The notes under the pieces: model-generated
What the model was told of the DNA's origin: nothing
The model's input: only the letters and a program-made list of their open reading frames with translations
The model's database searches: none
Shown: positions 28,567 through 59,158 of the stretch, one piece after another
Position numbering within the stretch: the first letter of the stretch is position 1
Layout of the letters: every line of letters begins with the position of its first letter
Made by a program: the position numbers and the translations under genes
IMG/VR virus record: IMGVR_UViG_3300032289_002472
Coordinates: 32,001 to 96,000 of that record
Direction: 5' to 3' (one strand)
Source of the DNA: a virus
Length of the DNA: 64,000 bases

Positions 28567-29580
28567 TTAGTAGTTAGACAATATATGATTTAGCAGAGAG
28601 TTAGATTCCGACTCATCCATCCTATGCATTGGAATAACATAGAACTGTGTCGTGGTGTCCACCTCGGGATTGTCTTGGCAATTTGGGAAGATAAAGAAAT
28701 CTCCCTTCATCTCTACCTGACAATAGTTTTCGTGATTTAGAGCGTCCTTAGATTCTGCAAGCAGAACCATGTCGTTTGTCTCACAAAGCCAATGATCATG
28801 TGAAACCCCCAACAACTCTCCAGATTCATATAGCGTGAAGTCCTCGCCAAGTCTGATTGGCTCTAAATTTAATTTAAGAGTAACACCTTCATTGGGTCCG
28901 ACCTTCAATGATCCAGCTGACTGATTCAAAATATGGCGAGTTGCCAAAGTTTTGAAATCATCAAGCTTTTCTTGAATTACTTCCTGAACAGTTATTGAAA
29001 GATCAGAAGTCTCAATGAAATCTAAGTACTTTTCTTTAATCTGTTCTTTCTGTTCAGATGTCAGCGTAAAACCCTTGTGCCTCAATTCAACAATAACATT
29101 TTCCCAAGGATTAAACATGCCGTAAACAATTGAATCAGGGTAGCCATCTTCAATTTCTTTGATCTTATTGTCAAATGCTTGAGATTCTGAAATATCTACT
29201 AGATCGGACCACTTGATTGGTTTAATCTCAAGATTTTCATCCAAATTCTCATGGACTGATTTTGACGAAATGAGATGTGTCCTAAAGTTGTCAGCAATCT
29301 GTGAAAGATCTGTGGTAAAAACCATCAACGACTTTTCAAAAGCTTCAGTAAGTTTAAAGTCACAAAGATTCTGTAACGAAATAATAATTCCTGATTCAGC
29401 TAATTTAGTGCTGATAACTGCTACAGTAGAAAGAGAAACTTCAGGAAATAATTGCTCAAATTTTTTGCTGTCAATTTCTTGCTCAAGAAATTCACTTTTA
29501 ATTTCCACTTCATAAGGAAGTATGTCTCTGGTTGTGTTCCAAAGCTGATTAAAAAGATAGTGTTTAATATTTGTTCTCAT
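28567..29580 (-). CDS. Hypothetical protein
   Basis: Long ORF; likely start MRTNIK at 29580, downstream of the terminator. Confidence 0.7.
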   Translation of the reverse strand: MRTNIKHYLFNQLWNTTRDILPYEVEIKSEFLEQEIDSKKFEQLFPEVSLSTVAVISTKLAESGIIISLQNLCDFKLTEAFEKSLMVFTTDLSQIADNFRTHLISSKSVHENLDENLEIKPIKWSDLVDISESQAFDNKIKEIEDGYPDSIVYGMFNPWENVIVELRHKGFTLTSEQKEQIKEKYLDFIETSDLSITVQEVIQEKLDDFKTLATRHILNQSAGSLKVGPNEGVTLKLNLEPIRLGEDFTLYESGELLGVSHDHWLCETNDMVLLAESKDALNHENYCQVEMKGDFFIFPNCQDNPEVDTTTQFYVIPMHRMDESESNSLLNHILSNY

Positions 29581-29585
29581 TTTGT

Positions 29586-29621
29586 AAAAGAAAAGGGAGG
29601 GGGACAAATGCCCCCCTCCCC
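29586..29621 (-). terminator. Intrinsic terminator closing the Ubl operon
   Basis: gggaggggg / ccccctccc stem plus TTTTCTTTT on the minus strand. Confidence 0.7.
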
Positions 29622-29644: not shown

Positions 29645-29848
29645 TTATTCGGCCATTTCAGCTCCGCTCGGCTTTTTGCCTGGAAGCTTCATTTGAGCCC
29701 TTTTTAAAGGCTCAAAAATTCCGACCTTAACTTTTTCGATAATCTCATCAGAGATATCGTTCGCTTCGGCGGAATTAATTAATTCTTCGACGCCAGTCAA
29801 GGCAAGCTCGACTGAACCTCTAAGACTAGATGTTGATTTTTTTCTCAT
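29645..29848 (-). CDS. Small hypothetical protein, last gene of the Ubl operon
   Basis: 67-aa ORF between JAB and the terminator. Confidence 0.55.
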   Translation of the reverse strand: MRKKSTSSLRGSVELALTGVEELINSAEANDISDEIIEKVKVGIFEPLKRAQMKLPGKKPSGAEMAE

Positions 29849-29854
29849 ATTTTT

Positions 29855-31048
29855 CTAATAGTAGCCGTACATTCCGTCATAGCTTCGAGCCATTAAATAC
29901 TTGCGCTCGTTAATCCACGACTCAATTGTATCGGCAAGTTTCTCTTTTGAGATGCCCCATGTAGCTAAAATATTAGCGTCCACAGCGGTAAGCACCTCAA
30001 GTTTCGTTTCATCTAACTGATGGTCGAAAGTAGTCAAAATGTCACATAGCTCAGCTTGTGTCATCCTAAAGTTTCGACATATTTTATCTACTGACGGCTC
30101 CAATAGGTCTTTAGTTTGTTCCTCCCCAAGACCTAAAGAACCCTGATGGGGGCTTTGGGAATATCCCACCTTTTTCTTTTTTTTGTTTTTTTTTGAGGCT
30201 TTTTTGGACTCCCACCACTCCCAGTATGGATTTGTGGATCCAGAAGAATAATTGGAAGCATATTCAGAAGAACCTCCGTAGTTATTAACTACAGTAAAAC
30301 TCTTCTTTGGTGGCTCCACTCGATTCTTCATCCATTCTTCAATCAAGCCCTCTTCAGCCAACTCTTCAGTGTTTTGTTTCACCAAAAAATTAGTTGTATA
30401 TTCTTGAATAGCTTTAGGAGCCCTAGAACCAATGTAGTCACTGGGAATTTCGATGAAGTCACTCATCTTAACAGGACAGAAAAAGACTTGAGCTTTTTCT
30501 ACTGTCTCCTCCCCCTCCTCATTGACGACAATTTTCCCAGGAATAACTACCGTAAAACGAACGTGAACATCTACTTCTTTCTCGTCAATTTTACCAATAG
30601 TTATGTGAATACCTGGAGAATTTTGCTCATCGTTTTTGTCGGTTCCAGATTGGAATGCGCCCATATTACAGTGTGAGTGGCATGTCCCCCACTGATAATA
30701 TTTACCGCCCTCCAATACCTCATTCATTTGAGCCTGAAAGGTTTCATGGTCTGGCAACTCTTTAGTTGTCATTCCAGTATCCTTTTCTTGAGGGAAGGCC
30801 CAAGCCTTCCACTCTTTGGTAACATCACTATAAAAAAGCCTAACTTGTGCCTCAGCTTTTTCATCTTTATTTACCTTGCGAAAAAAGGAAGCAATTGTCC
30901 TCCATAGAGACAGCTTCATCTTTCCACATCTCAACTCCAATGCTGGATCTTCTTTTATTTCTTCATATTCCACAGGAAAAAACCCCGACAACTTATCGTT
31001 AATTTCTTTTTTGATTAGTGGCTTACCACTATGAATGAATAATTTCAT
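29855..31048 (-). CDS. JAB/MPN+ metallo-isopeptidase (prokaryotic JAB, PRTRC protein A-like) with C-terminal extension
   Basis: AEAQVRLFY (catalytic Glu), WGTCHSHCNMGAFQSGTDKNDE (HxH-x7-S-x2-D), GIHITIG. Confidence 0.88.
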   Translation of the reverse strand: MKLFIHSGKPLIKKEINDKLSGFFPVEYEEIKEDPALELRCGKMKLSLWRTIASFFRKVNKDEKAEAQVRLFYSDVTKEWKAWAFPQEKDTGMTTKELPDHETFQAQMNEVLEGGKYYQWGTCHSHCNMGAFQSGTDKNDEQNSPGIHITIGKIDEKEVDVHVRFTVVIPGKIVVNEEGEETVEKAQVFFCPVKMSDFIEIPSDYIGSRAPKAIQEYTTNFLVKQNTEELAEEGLIEEWMKNRVEPPKKSFTVVNNYGGSSEYASNYSSGSTNPYWEWWESKKASKKNKKKKKVGYSQSPHQGSLGLGEEQTKDLLEPSVDKICRNFRMTQAELCDILTTFDHQLDETKLEVLTAVDANILATWGISKEKLADTIESWINERKYLMARSYDGMYGYY

Positions 31049-32639
31049 TTACTTTGATACTAGAGAGGTTGACTAGGATTTTTATTTCACCACTAGAACG
31101 AGTTTTTTGATGTGTCATCTCAGATGTCTTTTTGTAGCGATCCAATTGATACTCATGGATGTTTTCGTTAAAAGAATTGGCAACATACTGTTTCACAGCA
31201 GTCTCCCCCTTCCTAATCACAAACTCAGGAACCATGACTGATTGAGTCTCTTTAGGCTCAATTGTGTATCTCTGAATAACAGGTCTCTCAACGGTTGCCG
31301 AAAAACTCACCGAAACCTTTTTCTGTAAACTATCTTTAACATCGTTGGCGTTTATCCCAAAATGATAATGACCATACATGTTAGTAACTGCTGCTGATGA
31401 ACTAACCTGAAACCCAGCAGCCATCAAAGCCTTTTTGAAATAGCTACTCCACTTGTTGTTTAGCATAGTGTCGACACCCCAAAATAAAGGAGTGCCATCC
31501 TTAGCTGCTGCAACCGCAAACTCTGATAGCCAGTCGGAATGAACCTTGTCCAAAAGAACTGCTACAAGAGGAGAAGACTTTTTAGCCAAGGCAAGAGCGA
31601 ACTCACCAAAGGATGACATGTTTTTGTACTCTGTCGATTTTAGTAGGTTCATCTTGTATGGATCTAAAAACTCAGATTTAAAGTTTTTAGCTATCATACT
31701 CAACAGTTGAGATCGTGGTTGAACAGCTACACGATTATTGGTTATTTCAGAAAACGACCTAAAAGCTATCCTCAGTTCATCTTGATCCAGAAGCTTTGAG
31801 ATTCTTTTGTGTACCTCAATTTCTTTGCCATTAATTTCCAATAGACACGTTTTTTCCAGAAGAACCCCCTGGGAATCTGTGTCAATTTCTGTAAATTTTG
31901 TGCAAAAAGAATTTTTAGCCTTGCGACAGAACGTAGTGGAAACTTTAACAGTTTTCCATTTACCGTCATGCCACAGCCAAGTGACAGACCCATTCGGCAA
32001 CAAAACCAAACCAACTTGTTCTGCGGCGGAAAAGGCCTTTACTGGAATAAAAATATTCTGGACACTAAATCGATCTATAGTCCATCTAGAGTCAAAAACC
32101 TTAAACATCTTGGTTGCATTACCCAAAACCTCGATAGCCTCAAAGAATGGAGTTCGAATAGATCCAGTGCTTTGTAGTGCTTCATTGTTTTCCGGGCCTT
32201 GAACCGTACCCACACTAAAATAACTACCATTTGGCAAGATATTTCCTGTTCCAGACAGTGATTTAATATTTTTAATCACACGAAACGGAACTAGTGGAAC
32301 AGTCGTAAGAAGCTCAATTATTTTTTGATCATAATGCTTAAACCAATGCCCAGCTGGTTGAGTTAAATAAAACAACTTTTCGCTAACTTTTGGGTTTATG
32401 GGGTAGCCACAAAAAGAAGGGTTTAAACGTTTCCTTTGTGCAGTGTAATTAACGTATGGACGATCACACAGAGTTAAACACTCAACACTATCTTCGACAA
32501 AGATGTGTTTTGAGTTTCTGAGATTTAAAGCCTCTTGTATGAAGCTTTTGCGTTCCTCCTGAACATCATGGGGTGTTCTGTATGCCAAATTCTCAAAGTA
32601 TTGACCCTGAGAAAATGGATAGACTGGTTTATTACTCAT
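31029..32639 (-). CDS. Uncharacterised 536-aa protein in the Ubl operon
   Basis: Overlaps both E1 and JAB, suggesting translational coupling; no motif recognised. Confidence 0.75.
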   Translation of the reverse strand: MSNKPVYPFSQGQYFENLAYRTPHDVQEERKSFIQEALNLRNSKHIFVEDSVECLTLCDRPYVNYTAQRKRLNPSFCGYPINPKVSEKLFYLTQPAGHWFKHYDQKIIELLTTVPLVPFRVIKNIKSLSGTGNILPNGSYFSVGTVQGPENNEALQSTGSIRTPFFEAIEVLGNATKMFKVFDSRWTIDRFSVQNIFIPVKAFSAAEQVGLVLLPNGSVTWLWHDGKWKTVKVSTTFCRKAKNSFCTKFTEIDTDSQGVLLEKTCLLEINGKEIEVHKRISKLLDQDELRIAFRSFSEITNNRVAVQPRSQLLSMIAKNFKSEFLDPYKMNLLKSTEYKNMSSFGEFALALAKKSSPLVAVLLDKVHSDWLSEFAVAAAKDGTPLFWGVDTMLNNKWSSYFKKALMAAGFQVSSSAAVTNMYGHYHFGINANDVKDSLQKKVSVSFSATVERPVIQRYTIEPKETQSVMVPEFVIRKGETAVKQYVANSFNENIHEYQLDRYKKTSEMTHQKTRSSGEIKILVNLSSIKVNEIIHS

Positions 32640-33342
32640 TTTTTAAGTCTCCTATTGTTATTGTTCCAAGCTTTGAAAAAGTATTGTTTAATTCAAGAGG
32701 CCAGAACTGTAAGGACTGAGTCTCATCTAGAGTCTTAGATTCAATCATCCAAAAATTCCAAAGATGCAAAGCATGAGAAGCTGCAAACTGATTTGCCAGT
32801 GCAGTTTGAGGAACTTCACTCAAACGCTTCTCCGTGTTACACCCATCGGCCCTAATTGGAGAGCCACTATCAGTTGTAAGAATTTCAGGATAACGGACCC
32901 TAGGATCCAGCGATGTATTTGCCCAAGCTGAGTCATAATAAAATGCTTGAGCACCTATCGTACTGTTAGCAGCAAAAATAACTTTTGCCTTGTGACGATC
33001 TGCAACGGCAAGTAAATCGCGTCGTGCAGGATGATTGTCCACAAACCCCATAATTAAAGACTTGTTCTCCGGAGAAAACGAATCGTTAATATATTCATTA
33101 AGTACATCAATAAAAATACTAGGATGTTGTTGACGATACTGTGATGCCAATGCTTCGGCCTTGTATTGACCAACAGATTCTTGAGCGAATAGTTGTCGAT
33201 CAAGATTCTTGGTCTCGAACATGTCGCCATCAACAAGCGTGATTTTACTTTTTTTGAACTGCTTAAGGTGATTAATGGTTTTAAAGAAGGATGGCAGAAA
33301 ATAGGTGCAGACTCCGCCGCACCCAACAATGTAATGATTCAT
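32632..33342 (-). CDS. E1/ThiF-family ubiquitin-activating enzyme
   Basis: IVGCGGV, LVDGDMFETKNLDRQ, KAEALA, FVDNHPAR, candidate catalytic Cys in DGCN, PQTALAN. Confidence 0.9.
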   Translation of the reverse strand: MNHYIVGCGGVCTYFLPSFFKTINHLKQFKKSKITLVDGDMFETKNLDRQLFAQESVGQYKAEALASQYRQQHPSIFIDVLNEYINDSFSPENKSLIMGFVDNHPARRDLLAVADRHKAKVIFAANSTIGAQAFYYDSAWANTSLDPRVRYPEILTTDSGSPIRADGCNTEKRLSEVPQTALANQFAASHALHLWNFWMIESKTLDETQSLQFWPLELNNTFSKLGTITIGDLKNE

Positions 33343-33445
33343 GAATTAATGGTTTGAAATGTGTTTAAAAAGAAGAAGGGTTAGTTGAGATGAAAAACAA
33401 ACAAAAACTCTCAACAAAACTACATAGTTCTGTCCCCTCCTAAAG

Positions 33446-33898
33446 TTACCAGTTATTCTCTTGATCGTCCTCGTCGTCGTCCTCTTCGTTGTCGTCTTCG
33501 TCGTCTTCAGGAACTGCATGAGATCGACTTGATGCTGATTCCAATATTTGTTCTTGGGGCTCGAACCTCTGCCCAACAGAAGCTGGCAGTGTCACGGCGC
33601 TTTCAGAACAAAAAATTGGAACCCCAAACGACATAGAGTCTTCCGCTTGAGGATCTATAAAAGATAGATATCGTGAAACAAAGCTCTTTAGAGAAAATTC
33701 TGCAGGAACTTCTAAAGACTTTTCCTCTATACCTTTAGTTAAGTCTGTGCATCGAAAAAATGACCACGTAGACCTGTAAAAAACATAATCATTGTATAAT
33801 GATAAATGACGCTCTTTTGAGGTGCTGCCAAAAACTGACTCCATTGAGACAGGCAAGGTAGGAGCCTTCAAAAGATGCTGATACAGCTCTTTACTCAT
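33446..33898 (-). CDS. Uncharacterised protein with an acidic tail, in the Ubl operon
   Basis: ATGA overlap with E2; EDDEDDNEEDDDEDD tail. Confidence 0.7.
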   Translation of the reverse strand: MSKELYQHLLKAPTLPVSMESVFGSTSKERHLSLYNDYVFYRSTWSFFRCTDLTKGIEEKSLEVPAEFSLKSFVSRYLSFIDPQAEDSMSFGVPIFCSESAVTLPASVGQRFEPQEQILESASSRSHAVPEDDEDDNEEDDDEDDQENNW

Positions 33899-34731
33899 AT
33901 TGTTGGCAATCCATCGATGAAGTAGTTACCCACCTTTTTAACAAATGTTTTTTCGTTAATATGAACCAAAGACCGAACTTGATTCTTGTTGCAGTCCCAC
34001 CCAAAAATATTGGATGCAATGGGTGCCCTGGAAACCTCAGACTCAAGAAGGTCTCTATTCATTTTGGATTCAAAGAACCAAGTAACCGCTCTTTGAATGT
34101 TTTTATCAATTTGATTGTCTGAAATACTGGCGTCAAAGTTATGCCCCATACAAATACTTCCATCATTGTAGATGTTAGGCAGACAAGGCAAATAGTTACC
34201 TAGAAGTTTATTTTCCCTAGCGTTAATCACTTGAAAAAGCAGATGACACTTCATACTGAATCCCCTTGAGTTAATCCCAGCTCGTTTAGCTCCTGAAGAG
34301 CCTCTGTGATTAATCAAAACGGCAAACAACATTTTCATCACAATATCAGACGCACTCAGTGTGTTTTGTGTGTCAACACTCCAATAAAGTTTGTCGCTAA
34401 TAGAGTCTGGATTCGACCCAGACAAGTCTGTGATTATCCTGGTTTGACTACCGTGCTCAACTAGGGAGAACTTCGTGTCAAAAATTAATCCAGGAATATG
34501 AGACCAATAAATACAGTCTCCATTATTTGAAAGAGAAAAGTGAAAGGGATGCATGGCATAAGATATTTCGCCGCGCTGGCATCCAACAGCTACATTGTAT
34601 TGAGCATAATTATCAATACTGGCAAATTTTTGATTGGCAATTTTTTGAATGACGTCGTCAACATTGTAAATAGCACTAGGGTCTAGTCGATAAACAATGT
34701 TATCTTCGCCAAGGACGATAAGAGGATTCAT
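33895..34731 (-). CDS. Prokaryotic E2 (UBC-fold, E2 family D / PRTRC protein B-like)
   Basis: LPNIYNDGSICMG with catalytic Cys; WFFESKMNRDL. Confidence 0.8.
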   Translation of the reverse strand: MNPLIVLGEDNIVYRLDPSAIYNVDDVIQKIANQKFASIDNYAQYNVAVGCQRGEISYAMHPFHFSLSNNGDCIYWSHIPGLIFDTKFSLVEHGSQTRIITDLSGSNPDSISDKLYWSVDTQNTLSASDIVMKMLFAVLINHRGSSGAKRAGINSRGFSMKCHLLFQVINARENKLLGNYLPCLPNIYNDGSICMGHNFDASISDNQIDKNIQRAVTWFFESKMNRDLLESEVSRAPIASNIFGWDCNKNQVRSLVHINEKTFVKKVGNYFIDGLPTI

Positions 34732-34751
34732 GTGATGTTATTGAATTGTTG

Positions 34752-34792
34752 AAAAAAAGAGCCCCCAAGCTCGGCGCATCGAGCTTGGGGGC
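34752..34792 (-). terminator. Intrinsic terminator or attenuator between Ubl and E2
   Basis: Perfect 13-bp stem gcccccaagctcg/cgagcttgggggc plus TCTTTTTTT on the minus strand. Confidence 0.8.
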
Positions 34793-34832
34793 AAAAAATT
34801 AATTATGAGAAATAAACTTCTCTAGATACAAA

Positions 34833-35060
34833 TTAGGCGAGAGCCTTTTCGTGGGAACGATTCTGGACAGAAACCAGATCGCCCTCCGAAAGAACCACGT
34901 CATCGGAAGCAATGCTTCCATTGACAATGTACTGGACATTGTCAGAGCTGTAGCCGAGGGCTGCAGCGATGTTGCGGTTGTTACGAAGGCAGCCGAGGTT
35001 GCTTCCATTGGGAAGCTCCAAGGTCATGCTATTACCAGCGAAGCCAATATTAACTTGCAT
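34833..35060 (-). CDS. Ubiquitin-like beta-grasp protein (75 aa)
   Basis: MQVNIGF...TLELPNGSNLG.L...YIVNG....DVVLSEGDLVSV matches the ThiS/MoaD/Ub pattern; C-terminus RSHEKALA; first gene of the E2-E1-JAB operon. Confidence 0.8.
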   Translation of the reverse strand: MQVNIGFAGNSMTLELPNGSNLGCLRNNRNIAAALGYSSDNVQYIVNGSIASDDVVLSEGDLVSVQNRSHEKALA

Positions 35061-35200
35061 GATGTTATATAGTTTTGCTTTGAACGCCAAAGCGAACGGA
35101 AGTTTTGTACTGGATCTTCAACCAAGCAGCCCCACTTTGAAACTGCTGGGCAAGTATTCGCTATTTGCGAATAGCGAATACTTGCAATAGCAATCTCAAA

Positions 35201-37123: not shown

Positions 37124-37744
37124 TCATCCAGAAATACCTACAGGGACAAAAGATTTGATTAACTCAGTAATTTTATTACAAACCGCAGTTGCCTTCATGC
37201 TCGGACTAAGACCCAATGGAAAATCCTTGGAACGATAAAATACGTGTACGTCAACCCCCTTATTGATAGGATCAAAGGCCATCTTAAGTATTGTATCGTC
37301 CTGCACTAAACGAACAATCGGAATATGTATTGAAAGCTTTGGAGTATCTTCTCTGCGCAAAATACGGTTAATCCCATTCTGTAGTTCTTGTATATGCAGA
37401 ATTAAATTTTCCCAATCTTTTTGGCAAAAAGCTTTCCAGCATTTTGCATCCCAGTCCGCAAACCATTCTTCTTGTTTAGAAACATGTTTGCTGTGAGTAA
37501 AGAGCTTTCCAACTATGTGGGTTTCGTTTGCAGTTACATAAGAAATAGATTTTGCTTCTTTTGCTTTTGGCAAAGATTGATTTTTAGGTGGTCTACCCCG
37601 TTTTTTAATGAGAGTTGCTGAAGCCTGTTGAATGACAGCTTTGTTTTTGGGAGGTCTTCCCCTTTTTCTTTTGACGATCACAGGCTCTTGAATTGCTACA
37701 ACCTTATTCTTGGGGGGTCTGCCCCTCTTGCGTTTGATTGTCAT
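37124..37744 (-). CDS. AT-hook DNA-binding protein
   Basis: Three (K/R)KRGRPPKN AT-hook motifs. Confidence 0.8.
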   Translation of the reverse strand: MTIKRKRGRPPKNKVVAIQEPVIVKRKRGRPPKNKAVIQQASATLIKKRGRPPKNQSLPKAKEAKSISYVTANETHIVGKLFTHSKHVSKQEEWFADWDAKCWKAFCQKDWENLILHIQELQNGINRILRREDTPKLSIHIPIVRLVQDDTILKMAFDPINKGVDVHVFYRSKDFPLGLSPSMKATAVCNKITELIKSFVPVGISG

Positions 37745-57180: not shown

Positions 57181-57648
57181 TTAGGCGTTTTCCATGTCAG
57201 GAAACATTGGTAATTCCTCGTGGTCCGAGGAGTGTGTAAGGCTTTCGGAGGAAACGGCGTCCACCTTAAAAACCTGATCCAGTTCAATGTCCCTGTCAAT
57301 AATTCTGACGTTTATGGGCTCAGTTTTGCCATCTGTGCGCCATAAACCTGTAATAGTCCCGCTAGCAATTTCTAGTGTCAATTCCGAACTAATGCCGTTT
57401 ATAGTTGATGGTATAACAGAAATAATATGAGACTTTGGAAGCTCAACTATTTCTCCAGGAACTATTTGCGACGGACCCCTAGACAAAACCACAACATCCA
57501 TAACTTGACAGACAAAATGATCCGCTTTTTTGGATTTCTTGTCTAGTACCCTTACGGAACACGTTGTGCTTTGTTTTGGTTGGTTTCTTGGAATTCTCAT
57601 CACCAGAGTATCACCAGGCACTATTTTTATCATGTTTGTACTACTCAT
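57181..57648 (-). CDS. Hypothetical beta-rich protein directly downstream of the RT
   Basis: Overlaps the RT stop codon; SH3-like beta pattern; acidic tail. Confidence 0.6.
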   Translation of the reverse strand: MSSTNMIKIVPGDTLVMRIPRNQPKQSTTCSVRVLDKKSKKADHFVCQVMDVVVLSRGPSQIVPGEIVELPKSHIISVIPSTINGISSELTLEIASGTITGLWRTDGKTEPINVRIIDRDIELDQVFKVDAVSSESLTHSSDHEELPMFPDMENA

Positions 57649-59158
57649 GATCTAGGCTCACCTCAATTCTGCGAGTCTCCGAACCACTCGGAGGACTCAG
57701 TGTGTTAAATAAGACCAATAATTTTTGAGCTTTTTCTGGGCAGGCAGATTGTATAAAGCTAATTTTGCCACGTATACTTTCAAGAGAACTCTGATAATTC
57801 AGCAAACTCTTATGTTTAGTGGTGGCACTATTCAGGCTTAATATTTCTTTTCTGACTGCTTCTATGTATCTGGAAGACACAGTGGGTTTACCGGAGTTTA
57901 TGATATACCCGACAATGTCCATTCTACCACCAGTACCCAAGATCCTTGTTTTCTTGTTATTAAGCTCAAAGCCATGGTTTTTAATAATCCCTTGGATAGA
58001 AGAAATAAATATATTTATTCGTTTCTTCCCCATGCGTTCTGTCCATGTGAATGACATGTCGTCCGCATAGCGGGAATATATTGCCCCATGCTTTTGCGCA
58101 AATCCAGTCAACCTATAGTCCATTCTTTTAACGGCAATGTTACTTAGTGTTGGACTGGTTGGAGATCCTTGCGGTAGAAATCTGTGGCCTGGTTTTATCT
58201 GACTTCCTAAATTTAATAGGTCTTTAAAAGCATCAAAAACAGATGATTTATCTATCCATTTGTTTTTAATGGCTATCTCTATGATCCAACAAATATATTT
58301 TGAGAGAAAAGATTTAAAAACAGTACTACTTGTAAGTACCGAATTACCTCTCATATACACCGGAAGCTGAGCTACCATTTGTTGACTAAAAAAATTGTGT
58401 ACGTAATTCCAACTTAAAAGAGAAAAACATGCATCAACCATCAGTTTGATGGCATTTTTTTGTGTAAATAGAATGGTTGAATTATGTAAAATATATTTTG
58501 TATTATCTTTGTCAAAGCCATGAGCTGACAGAGCATTAGTTAGATCACTGCTCAAAACACTTCCGAAAAAGTTTTTAATGTCTAGGTTCACTAACAATTC
58601 TATTTTTTTTTCGTGACCCAATAAATGAAAATTAGCACAGTCAAAAGCAGACCTATTTATTGCAAATCCAAATGCGCTTGAATGTACATTAATATAGCTT
58701 AGGTCTCTTTGTATCTTAGACTGAACGGCTTTTAGCTCATTAAAAGGAGCTAAAATTATCCTGCAATTTTCAGTTTGCTCTTTTGCTTTAGATAAAAATC
58801 CAAATACACTAGAACAAATTTCATACAATTCTTTTTCAGTAGTTTTGTTTTTATCTGCCTTTAGCGCTTTGCTTAGTTTTTGTCTAAACGAAACAAACAG
58901 CTTTTCGGCAATGTGTTTATCTATCTTTTCTTTTTCATAGACATTTGTCGTTAAGTCTCTTTTGGCTAGCTCCTCTATCCTCCATATTGAATACAGAGAA
59001 TTGTTAAGATGGGAAACAAACCTTGGATAAAAACTTTTGCCAACGAACAAAGATCCTATCAATAGCTCAGACAAAGATGTGGGAGACGCTGTGCGTCTCC
59101 CACTCTTGGGCAAAGAAAAAACCCTATAATTTAAGTTGTTTTCATTATGCGTCGACAT
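57641..59158 (-). CDS. Retron-type reverse transcriptase with two large insertions
   Basis: YRVFSLPKSGRR...RIILAP..LKAVQ, SAFGF, SAFDCANFH (region X-like), LDIKNFFGS, LPQGSPTSPTLSN, YSRYADD, GFELNNKKT, IVGYIIN (region Y-like). Confidence 0.92.
   Translation of the reverse strand: MSTHNENNLNYRVFSLPKSGRRTASPTSLSELLIGSLFVGKSFYPRFVSHLNNSLYSIWRIEELAKRDLTTNVYEKEKIDKHIAEKLFVSFRQKLSKALKADKNKTTEKELYEICSSVFGFLSKAKEQTENCRIILAPFNELKAVQSKIQRDLSYINVHSSAFGFAINRSAFDCANFHLLGHEKKIELLVNLDIKNFFGSVLSSDLTNALSAHGFDKDNTKYILHNSTILFTQKNAIKLMVDACFSLLSWNYVHNFFSQQMVAQLPVYMRGNSVLTSSTVFKSFLSKYICWIIEIAIKNKWIDKSSVFDAFKDLLNLGSQIKPGHRFLPQGSPTSPTLSNIAVKRMDYRLTGFAQKHGAIYSRYADDMSFTWTERMGKKRINIFISSIQGIIKNHGFELNNKKTRILGTGGRMDIVGYIINSGKPTVSSRYIEAVRKEILSLNSATTKHKSLLNYQSSLESIRGKISFIQSACPEKAQKLLVLFNTLSPPSGSETRRIEVSLDHE

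Follow-up and report, generated by a model that had tools for sequence, protein, structure and literature searches.

A 64,000-nucleotide stretch of viral DNA (hereafter the window), comprising bases 32001–96000 of the 113,067-base IMG/VR virus record IMGVR_UViG_3300032289_002472, contains at positions 29645–35060 a cassette of minus-strand genes for a ubiquitin-like protein (Ubl), an E2-like protein, a protein X, a ThiF-type E1, a protein Y, and a JAB metallopeptidase (Table 1). Sequence and structural models together make it likely that this cassette is a phage-encoded cascade that attaches the Ubl and removes it again, by trimming of the Ubl, thioester formation on the E1, transfer by the E2-like protein, and reversal by JAB. 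A first-pass annotation of the window had described a full Ubl, E1, E2, and JAB writer–eraser set that is not part of a sulfur-carrier pathway. Our results agree with this description in the fold of the Ubl, the adenylation residues of the E1, the invariant JAMM site of JAB, the motif of the E2-like protein, and the lack of ThiG and MoaE. PHROG matches in the record to tail fibres, DNA polymerase, DnaB- and other helicases, SbcC, and a UvsX-like recombinase confirm that it derives from a large tailed phage. The record is 72% complete as estimated by CheckV, and by extrapolation from 113 kb the full phage would be about 160 kb.

The 75-amino acid Ubl has the beta-grasp fold predicted for it in the first-pass annotation. 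Its AlphaFold2 model, calculated with seven sequences, has a predicted local distance difference test (pLDDT) value of 85.2 and a predicted template modelling score (pTM) of 0.70, and follows the order β-β-α-β-β-β with residues 70–75 disordered. A Foldseek search of the PDB with this model returned 331 chains at E≤1e-3, the top match being Caldiarchaeum ubiquitin (template modelling score, TM, 0.74; rmsd 2.3), followed by ubiquitin and SUMO, and superposition on ubiquitin and SUMO gave TM scores of 0.70–0.74. In a viral structure library, the closest match (TM 0.84) was to an uncharacterised protein from an uncultured tailed phage. At the level of sequence, matches were weak, and were to ThiS-like proteins (E 0.016) and to MoaD (1vjk, E 0.008 with a four-sequence profile).

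The tail of the window Ubl, HEKALA, has no glycine, and tails within its own clade consist of HEKA followed by A, LA, SA, or VS. In each of the 32 distinct Ubls of our survey, the last strand is followed immediately by a K-[A/G] site, which is Lys-Ala in 29 and Lys-Gly in 3. This site forms the natural C-terminus in 14 of the 32. It is followed by one residue in 10 Ubls, by two in one (as also in the window Ubl), and by five to ~30 unconserved residues in 7. The combination of a fixed K-[A/G] site with variable tails suggests a precursor that is cut at a fixed site, as is the case for BilA, and predicts that JAB trims the window Ubl after Ala73. By this comparison, the window Ubl is probably trimmed by JAB to end in ...HEKA, with Ala73 being the residue that is activated.

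The E1 is the sole protein of the cassette to score above a curated family threshold (Pfam ThiF, residues 4–136, 53.3 bits against a cut-off of 28.1). Its best NCBIfam match is likewise a ThiF model, with PRTRC_ThiF second-best (3.1e-10, 39.8 against a cut-off of 144.75). PADLOC gave weak, partial matches to CBASS Cap2 “E1-E2” models, which cover the E1 part only. Residues G7, G9, D40, N46, K61, and D102, the last of which is the Mg-binding residue, are present in 46 of 46 distinct relatives, R49 in 45 of 46, and C168 in 41 of 46. The first-pass assignment of a ThiF/E1 protein with nucleotide-binding motifs and a cysteine is thus well founded. The JAB protein has the HSH-x7-S-x2-D motif intact, as had been noted (HSHCNMGAFQSGTD, which corresponds to H-x-H-x7-S-x2-D), and H-x-H-x7-S-x2-D occurs in all 46 distinct relatives. 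PRTRC_A was its sole NCBIfam match (4.7e-7, 29.6 against a cut-off of 101.8), and Pfam Prok-JAB was matched below cut-off (3.1e-3). JAB also has a linker rich in lysine and a C-terminal part that is helical.

The E2-like protein is the least secure part of the cassette, and the comparative evidence for it is stronger than the fold evidence. Its match to Pfam Prok-E2_D (residues 180–231, 21.5 bits, E 2.1e-4) falls below the cut-off of 25. A profile of the protein retrieved nothing usable from PDB sequences, and by this search it has no detectable similarity to E2s. All 35 distinct relatives keep N186, C194, G196, and D227, the first three of which form the arrangement Asn186-x7-Cys194-x-Gly. 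Canonical E2s have the same eight-residue spacing between Asn and Cys in their HPN...Cys motif. The window protein has an N-x3-D-x3-C-x-G motif in common with Prok-E2_D/PRTRC_B-like proteins encoded by a plasmid and by cultured phages, and hhalign aligned the window protein locally with E2_D-like proteins of other phages and the plasmid (E 1.3e-4, probability 53%). The top hits of an exhaustive fold search (VIA) were mostly E2 and UEV proteins, and included UBE2E1, Tsg101, UbcH5c, Ubc13, the Cap2 E2 domain, CdnG-E2, and a Citrobacter BubCD-BubB-BubA complex. In the model, which has an overall pLDDT of 54, the motif follows the last strand and precedes a helix predicted with good confidence (residues 208–221), an arrangement also seen in UBC enzymes. 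Of the earlier claim of an E2 with PNIYNDGSIC, then, the motif stands and its Asn-x7-Cys-x-Gly pattern is invariant, whereas the putative UBC fold comes from a low-confidence model with Z scores below 5.

The order Ubl-E2-X-E1-Y-JAB is kept in four other lineages, namely IMG/VR 3300034198_024209, 3300031963_000205 (along with identical copies), and 3300030508_000022, and the 174-kb metagenome contig Ga0315901_10000038. In 3300034198_024209, 3300031963_000205, and Ga0315901_10000038, identities to the window proteins are ~53–54% for E1, 44–46% for JAB, 41–45% for the Ubl, 31–34% for the E2-like protein, 33–36% over the N-terminal 80 residues of X, and 22–23% for Y. Recurrence of a six-gene order in four lineages at 22–55% identity is more than would be expected by chance. 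The genes that flank the cassette are syntenic across these relatives as well, and the cassette appears from sequence to be a fixed feature of the phage backbone.

Closely related strains provide a second view of conservation. Lake and freshwater metagenome contigs from four studies cover the whole operon at ~90–99% identity. Insertions and deletions within open reading frames (ORFs) in these strain variants are multiples of three, and single-base insertions and deletions occur between genes only. Among the differences listed (40 of 586), all six in JAB are synonymous, as are 20 of the 34 in Y, and 22 of the 34 in Y are at codon position 3. The in-frame indels and, among the differences listed, the excess of synonymous changes point to selection on the operon in lake populations.

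The compact E1 belongs to a much wider family, for which we found 618 clusters at E≤1e-5 in a collection of 5.8 billion proteins, many of them on contigs of 50–214 kb. A pattern scan of IMG/VR with 14 diverse E1s yielded 57 loci, to which iterated profiles were then applied. JAB was found at 53 of the 57 E1 loci, the E2-like protein at 39, the Ubl at 37, and X and Y at only 4. In 34 of the 57, the layout consists of the Ubl, the E2-like protein, usually one small ORF, the E1, zero to three unrelated ORFs, and JAB. The first-pass annotation had named synteny in related phages as a check, and both the six-gene order in four lineages and the Ubl-E2-...-E1-...-JAB order in these 34 loci bear on it favorably. 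The layout across the 57 loci indicates that X and Y fill two positions that vary between lineages. Two protein queries, P0017 and P0011, gave no IMG/VR locus. Among 50,697 GenBank phage records, tblastn with the E2-like protein, Y, and JAB gave no match, with the E1 alone being found, and blastn with the region gave none. A scan for the E1 pattern in one genome per prokaryote species found no relative. The cassette is a representative of a widespread phage branch and not a one-off, and it is distantly PRTRC-like.

X and Y differ in their degree of conservation. X is the 150-amino acid, acidic-tailed protein of the first-pass annotation, and has no family match in Pfam, NCBIfam, PHROGs, or PADLOC. 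Its position is held in other lineages by unrelated or barely related small ORFs. A similar N-terminal motif is seen in the X-position proteins of several unrelated-looking IMG/VR lineages (LYQxLLxAP, LFQEMLELP, ELYQALLNSP, and PYEILMEAP), and could be a common short docking helix. The stretch that encodes the acidic tail of X (33465–33508, GAT/GAC/GAA repeats) draws many unrelated metagenome contigs and false “joints”, and the spike in depth there is an artefact of its low complexity. Y, noted earlier as an unknown of 536 amino acids, remains without a match in Pfam, NCBIfam, PHROGs, PADLOC, PDB sequences, or the ESM Atlas. In the last of these, Y and one Y homologue had no model, and feature matches were at chance level only (0.82). 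Just 12 clusters at 50% identity contain Y among 1.84 billion representative proteins. No cysteine is conserved in Y, and only a few charged residues (E273, D287, R290, and K329) are invariant. Kinship of Y to similar-sized neighbours in other phage cassettes (KLEB27-3 gp197 and the PcfJ-like protein of ME3) was considered and rejected (hhalign probability <1%). The variability of X and Y between lineages suggests roles in the choice of targets, or as targets themselves, and among the cassette proteins these two are the foremost candidates to be specificity factors or substrates.

A hairpin starts 40 nt after the end of the Ubl gene, and a GC-rich hairpin occurs at the same place in all four relatives. 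A T-run follows it directly in 3300034198_024209, 3300031963_000205, and Ga0315901_10000038, and is set further downstream in 3300030508_000022. The sequence of the hairpin differs in the first three, and the stem in 3300030508_000022 differs from that in the window by two compensatory pair changes. Conservation of a hairpin at this site, terminator-like in the window, suggests that the tag is probably made in excess over the enzymes, and partial termination there, giving more tag than enzymes, is the simplest reading of the sequences.

Taken together, a mechanism can be proposed, each step of which is inferred from sequence, models, and comparison. The Ubl gene would be transcribed first, and the hairpin that follows it would lead to an excess of tag, with read-through supplying two groups coupled in translation, E2-X and E1-Y-JAB. 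JAB would trim the residues that follow the invariant His-Glu-Lys-Ala, which are Leu-Ala in the window Ubl, and so expose Ala73. The compact ThiF-type E1 would then adenylate the carboxylate of Ala73 and probably form a thioester on Cys168 of the crossover loop. From there the tag would pass to Cys194 of the E2-like protein, eight residues downstream of Asn186, and then to an amino group of a target. X and Y, at the lineage-variable positions, may act as specificity factors or substrates, and JAB would also remove the tag.

Several observations weigh against such a cascade. Every family match other than that to ThiF is below its curated threshold. The model of the E2-like protein, calculated with ten sequences, is poor (pLDDT 54); Foldseek found no match to it at E≤1e-3; and its VIA Z scores are all ≤4.7, with the tool describing the range below 5 as common for chance arrangements. 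A C-terminal alanine is unusual for a substrate of an E1, and in Bil systems the glycine is universally conserved (10.1101/2023.09.26.559546). No E3-like protein was found, and no RING or HECT partner was seen. The record is also only ~72% complete, so ParB and other absent genes could lie elsewhere in the genome.

Among named systems, the closest to the phage cassette is the PRTRC cassette (ParB-Related, ThiF-Related Cassette; NCBIfam TIGR03734–03742) of plasmids and integrative and conjugative elements, which appears to be operon type 6d of Iyer, Burroughs and Aravind 2006 (PMC1779556). Both are found on mobile elements, and both have a separate small Ubl, an E2-like Cys protein of the Prok-E2_D/PRTRC_B type, a ThiF-type E1, and a JAB with an extra N-terminal part. 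The window E2-like protein is connected to PRTRC_B, and the window JAB to PRTRC_A, through intermediate proteins of phages and plasmids. The phage cassette differs in its gene order, its lineage-specific X and Y, its Lys-Ala tag end, and its location on a large-phage replicon. Membership in PRTRC was rejected, as the scores of JAB (29.6 of 101.8) and E1 (39.8 of 144.75) are far below the cut-offs, NCBIfam PRTRC models have no match to the window E2-like protein or to the Ubl (PRTRC_C included), and ParB_N (PF02195) has no match anywhere in the ~72% complete 113-kb record. In searchable papers, PRTRC occurs only as an annotation label, without a tested function.

Clusters of E2_D, JAB, and ThiF genes are also present in cultured large phages, including Salmonella phage Arash (OQ632216, gp249c–246c), Vibrio phages D69, D181, and D148, and Bacillus phage vB_BauM_KLEB27-3 (gp197–194), and a partial version with PRTRC_A and ThiF is present in Acinetobacter phage ME3. 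These clusters share with the window the same three enzyme families and the N-x3-D-x3-C-x-G motif of the E2-like protein. Their gene order is E2-JAB-E1, in contrast to E2-X-E1-Y-JAB in the window, and identity is low, such that tblastn finds only the E1. Profiles for the Ubl, X, and Y found no homologue in the cultured-phage clusters. In Arash (OQ632216, 1519–4539), gp248c (E2-like) and gp246c (E1-like) are annotated “structural protein”; should this annotation derive from proteomics of virions, the two enzymes could be carried in the particle and injected. Related genes occur on plasmids as well. In Lysinibacillus sphaericus plasmid pSSII-1 (4895–9607), a JAB-ThiF pair immediately precedes dnaX and a gene for a delta-prime subunit, and in Thermoanaerobacterium plasmid pMU3262 (2760–6717), an E2_D-ThiF cluster follows an ArdC-like gene. 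These neighbours on Firmicutes megaplasmids suggest that such genes are tied to how mobile elements enter cells or replicate.

The phage cassette shares with BilABCD a four-part logic of Ubl, E2, JAB-type deubiquitinase (DUB), and E1. The Bil DUB pre-processes the tail of its Ubl to expose a conserved glycine and also removes conjugates (10.1101/2023.09.26.559546). BilD, however, has an inactive and an active adenylation domain along with a Cys-bearing helical insertion, whereas the phage E1 is a single domain of 236 amino acids; BilA has a universally conserved glycine before its variable tail, whereas the phage Ubl has an alanine; and Bil is a host defence, whereas the phage set consists of backbone genes. 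Assignment to BilABCD was rejected because of the single ThiF domain and the Lys-Ala site, which the window Ubl shares with 29 of the 32 distinct Ubls (Lys-Gly in the other 3). CBASS Cap2/Cap3 resembles the phage cassette in its E1 and E2 chemistry and its JAB eraser, and the Cap2 E2 domain is in the list of fold matches. Cap2 is a fused E1-E2 that acts on a CD-NTase, whereas the phage genes are separate, with X between them, and include a beta-grasp Ubl. CBASS was rejected because the E1 and E2 are encoded by separate genes, the PADLOC matches are to the E1 part only, and no Pfam match to a nucleotidyltransferase occurs among 17 cassette and neighbouring proteins. With eukaryotic and archaeal systems (Caldiarchaeum ubiquitin and UBE2D/UBE2E), the cassette shares the fold of the Ubl and, in the E2-like protein, a Pro-Asn...Cys motif with an eight-residue distance from Asn to Cys. 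It differs from these in that the E2-like protein is ~120 residues longer with extra strands and the Ubl has no Gly-Gly end.

The resemblance to Bil raises the prospect that the cassette serves in anti-phage defence or superinfection exclusion, by tagging structural proteins of competing phages and spoiling their assembly. Bil, with the same four activities, conjugates its Ubl to the central tail fibre of phages (10.1101/2023.09.04.556158), phages often carry defence genes, and the E1 has its weak PADLOC matches to Cap2 models. We nevertheless consider a defence role unlikely. The cassette occupies the same backbone position with syntenic flanks at 22–55% protein identity, which is the behaviour of core genes and not of an accessory island, no PADLOC model matches the Ubl, the E2-like protein, or JAB, and neither the two-domain architecture of BilD nor the conserved glycine of BilA is present.

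Two further explanations dispense with protein tagging. The E1 might activate a carrier for sulfur transfer or for small-molecule or peptide synthesis, in the style of ThiS/MoaD/CysO, QbsE, or MccB, with JAB maturing the carrier and the “E2” serving as a scaffold. The ThiS-like and MoaD sequence matches of the Ubl and the ThiF model that best matches the E1 in NCBIfam are in keeping with this, and sulfur pathways include JAB and carrier pairs that have no E2 (PMC1779556). This possibility is nonetheless very unlikely and ThiS/MoaD pathways were rejected, as the tag ends in Lys-Ala (HEKALA) and not Gly-Gly, and no ThiG, MoaE, or other sulfur partner was found in the 113 kb, which upholds the earlier observation that sulfur-transfer genes are lacking. 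In fold, the Ubl also resembles ubiquitin and SUMO more closely than ThiS or MoaD, and an E2-like protein with an invariant Cys eight residues after an invariant Asn is beside the E1 in 39 of 57 loci. Less probable still is an aid to virion assembly like the lambda tail pair, a Ubl-domain protein (I) and a JAB/NlpC protein (K), in which the Ubl would be processed without conjugation. Phage Ubl and JAB pairs have long been known in tail-assembly modules (PMC1779556), and the “structural protein” annotation of the Arash E2-like and E1-like genes would fit such a role. The cassette, however, is in the replication and recombination region, ~25 kb from the tail-fibre genes, mere processing would need neither an E1 with a complete site nor an E2-like Cys protein, and Pfam identified no NlpC/P60 domain.

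As to what a tagging cascade would do, we think it more likely to serve the infection of the phage that carries it, in establishment, replication, or counter-defence, than to be defence cargo, because the cassette is among replication and recombination genes and not tail genes, is stable across lineages, and has plasmid kin beside entry and replication genes. This role, suggested by gene context, is the weakest point of our interpretation. The roles put forward in the first-pass annotation, tagging of host or phage proteins and reversal of a host Ubl defence, are likewise conjectural. Going further, we propose only tentatively that tailed phages of lakes and other environments run a tag ending in Lys-Ala-COOH, and that the genes at the variable positions are E3-like and direct it to host or phage proteins, for example to disarm immunity.

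All seven co-oriented ORFs reported in the first-pass annotation are present on the minus strand at 29645–35060. They had been described as mostly overlapping, and this holds for E2/X (the start of X overlaps the stop of the E2 gene by 4 nt), E1/Y (8 nt), and Y/JAB (20 nt), whereas gaps of 101, 103, and 6 nt separate Ubl from E2, X from E1, and JAB from Z, respectively. The junctions thus define groups consisting of Ubl alone, E2-X, and E1-Y-JAB, with Z 6 nt after JAB. As E2 is coupled to X, and E1 to Y and JAB, their products may form complexes. A terminator-like hairpin, GC-rich and with a T-run, closes the block (Table 1). Z, which had been counted as a member of the operon, exists as an ORF of 67 amino acids; it is lineage-specific, has no family match in Pfam, NCBIfam, PHROGs, or PADLOC, and is absent from all relatives examined. 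In 3300034198_024209, 3300031963_000205, and Ga0315901_10000038, JAB runs straight into a homologue of the window gene at 28567–29607. From this comparison, Z is probably outside the conserved system.

Table 1. Features of the Ubl cassette, in order of transcription (window coordinates).
Feature	Position	Strand	Description
Ubl	34833..35060	(-)	75 aa from ATG; tail ...SHEKA/LA (slash, predicted cut); predicted mature end Ala73
Hairpin Ubl-E2	34761..34792	(-)	Intrinsic-terminator-like, 13 bp, 10 GC, T-run
E2-like carrier protein	33895..34731	(-)	278 aa; contains PNIYNDGSIC; candidate catalytic Cys194, candidate oxyanion Asn186
X	33446..33898	(-)	150 aa; ~80-aa conserved N-terminal module, variable tail (acidic here)
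E1	32632..33342	(-)	236 aa, ThiF-type; GxGG Rossmann motif, D38/D40, R49, K61, D102, crossover-loop Cys168
Y	31029..32639	(-)	536 aa, lineage-specific
JAB/JAMM metallopeptidase	29855..31048	(-)	397 aa; E66, H124-S-H126, S134, D137
Z	29645..29848	(-)	67-aa ORF, lineage-specific
Closing hairpin	29594..29621	(-)	Terminator-like, 12 bp, 9 GC, T-rich tail

Upstream of the cassette, at 35150–35185 and ~90 nt before the Ubl start, is a hairpin whose 16-bp stem is a perfect palindrome and whose loop is 4 nt. Lacking a T-run, it does not qualify as a standard terminator, and could instead serve as an operator or in RNA stability or processing. The Ubl and E2 starts have no Shine-Dalgarno sequence, and both are preceded by ATAACATC(A) (35061–35075 and 34732–34745, respectively). 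The missing Shine-Dalgarno sequences may point to a host with weak usage of this signal, such as a Bacteroidota-like one, which fits the 38% GC content and the lake origin. The cassette adjoins replication and recombination genes. Pfam matched nothing in ten flanking genes besides a 206-amino acid protein (37124–37744, minus strand), which has three RGRPPKN AT-hook repeats (AT_hook, 9.6e-8), is probably DNA-binding, and is kept upstream of the cassette in all relatives. Farther away, a 505-amino acid protein (57641–59158, minus strand) matches PHROG polymerase (1.3e-46) and reverse-transcriptase (6.6e-9) families.

Bacterial Ubl tagging has so far been studied only as a weapon of hosts against phages (Bil and CBASS Cap2/Cap3), and here a virus holds the whole kit. 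No paper treating phage-encoded E1/E2/JAB cassettes was found in a literature search, and a survey of jumbo phages (PMC7824862) makes no mention of them. The same design is present in dozens of IMG/VR phage contigs, and this type of E1 in hundreds of metagenomic protein clusters. The Lys-Ala site predicts an alanine-linked tag, for which the mass-spectrometry signature after trypsin digestion would be a single Ala (+71 Da) on the modified lysine, and the two variable gene positions are where target choice may lie. Distant versions occur in culturable Salmonella, Vibrio, and Bacillus phages, which makes genetics possible. If host defence or replication proteins are indeed tagged, the cassette would represent a new class of phage counter-measure, and would also offer an independent route to understanding the PRTRC cassettes of plasmids. 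If the reading of an alanine tag is true, it would be a prokaryotic viral writer–eraser system with a chemistry unlike that of every studied Ubl pathway.

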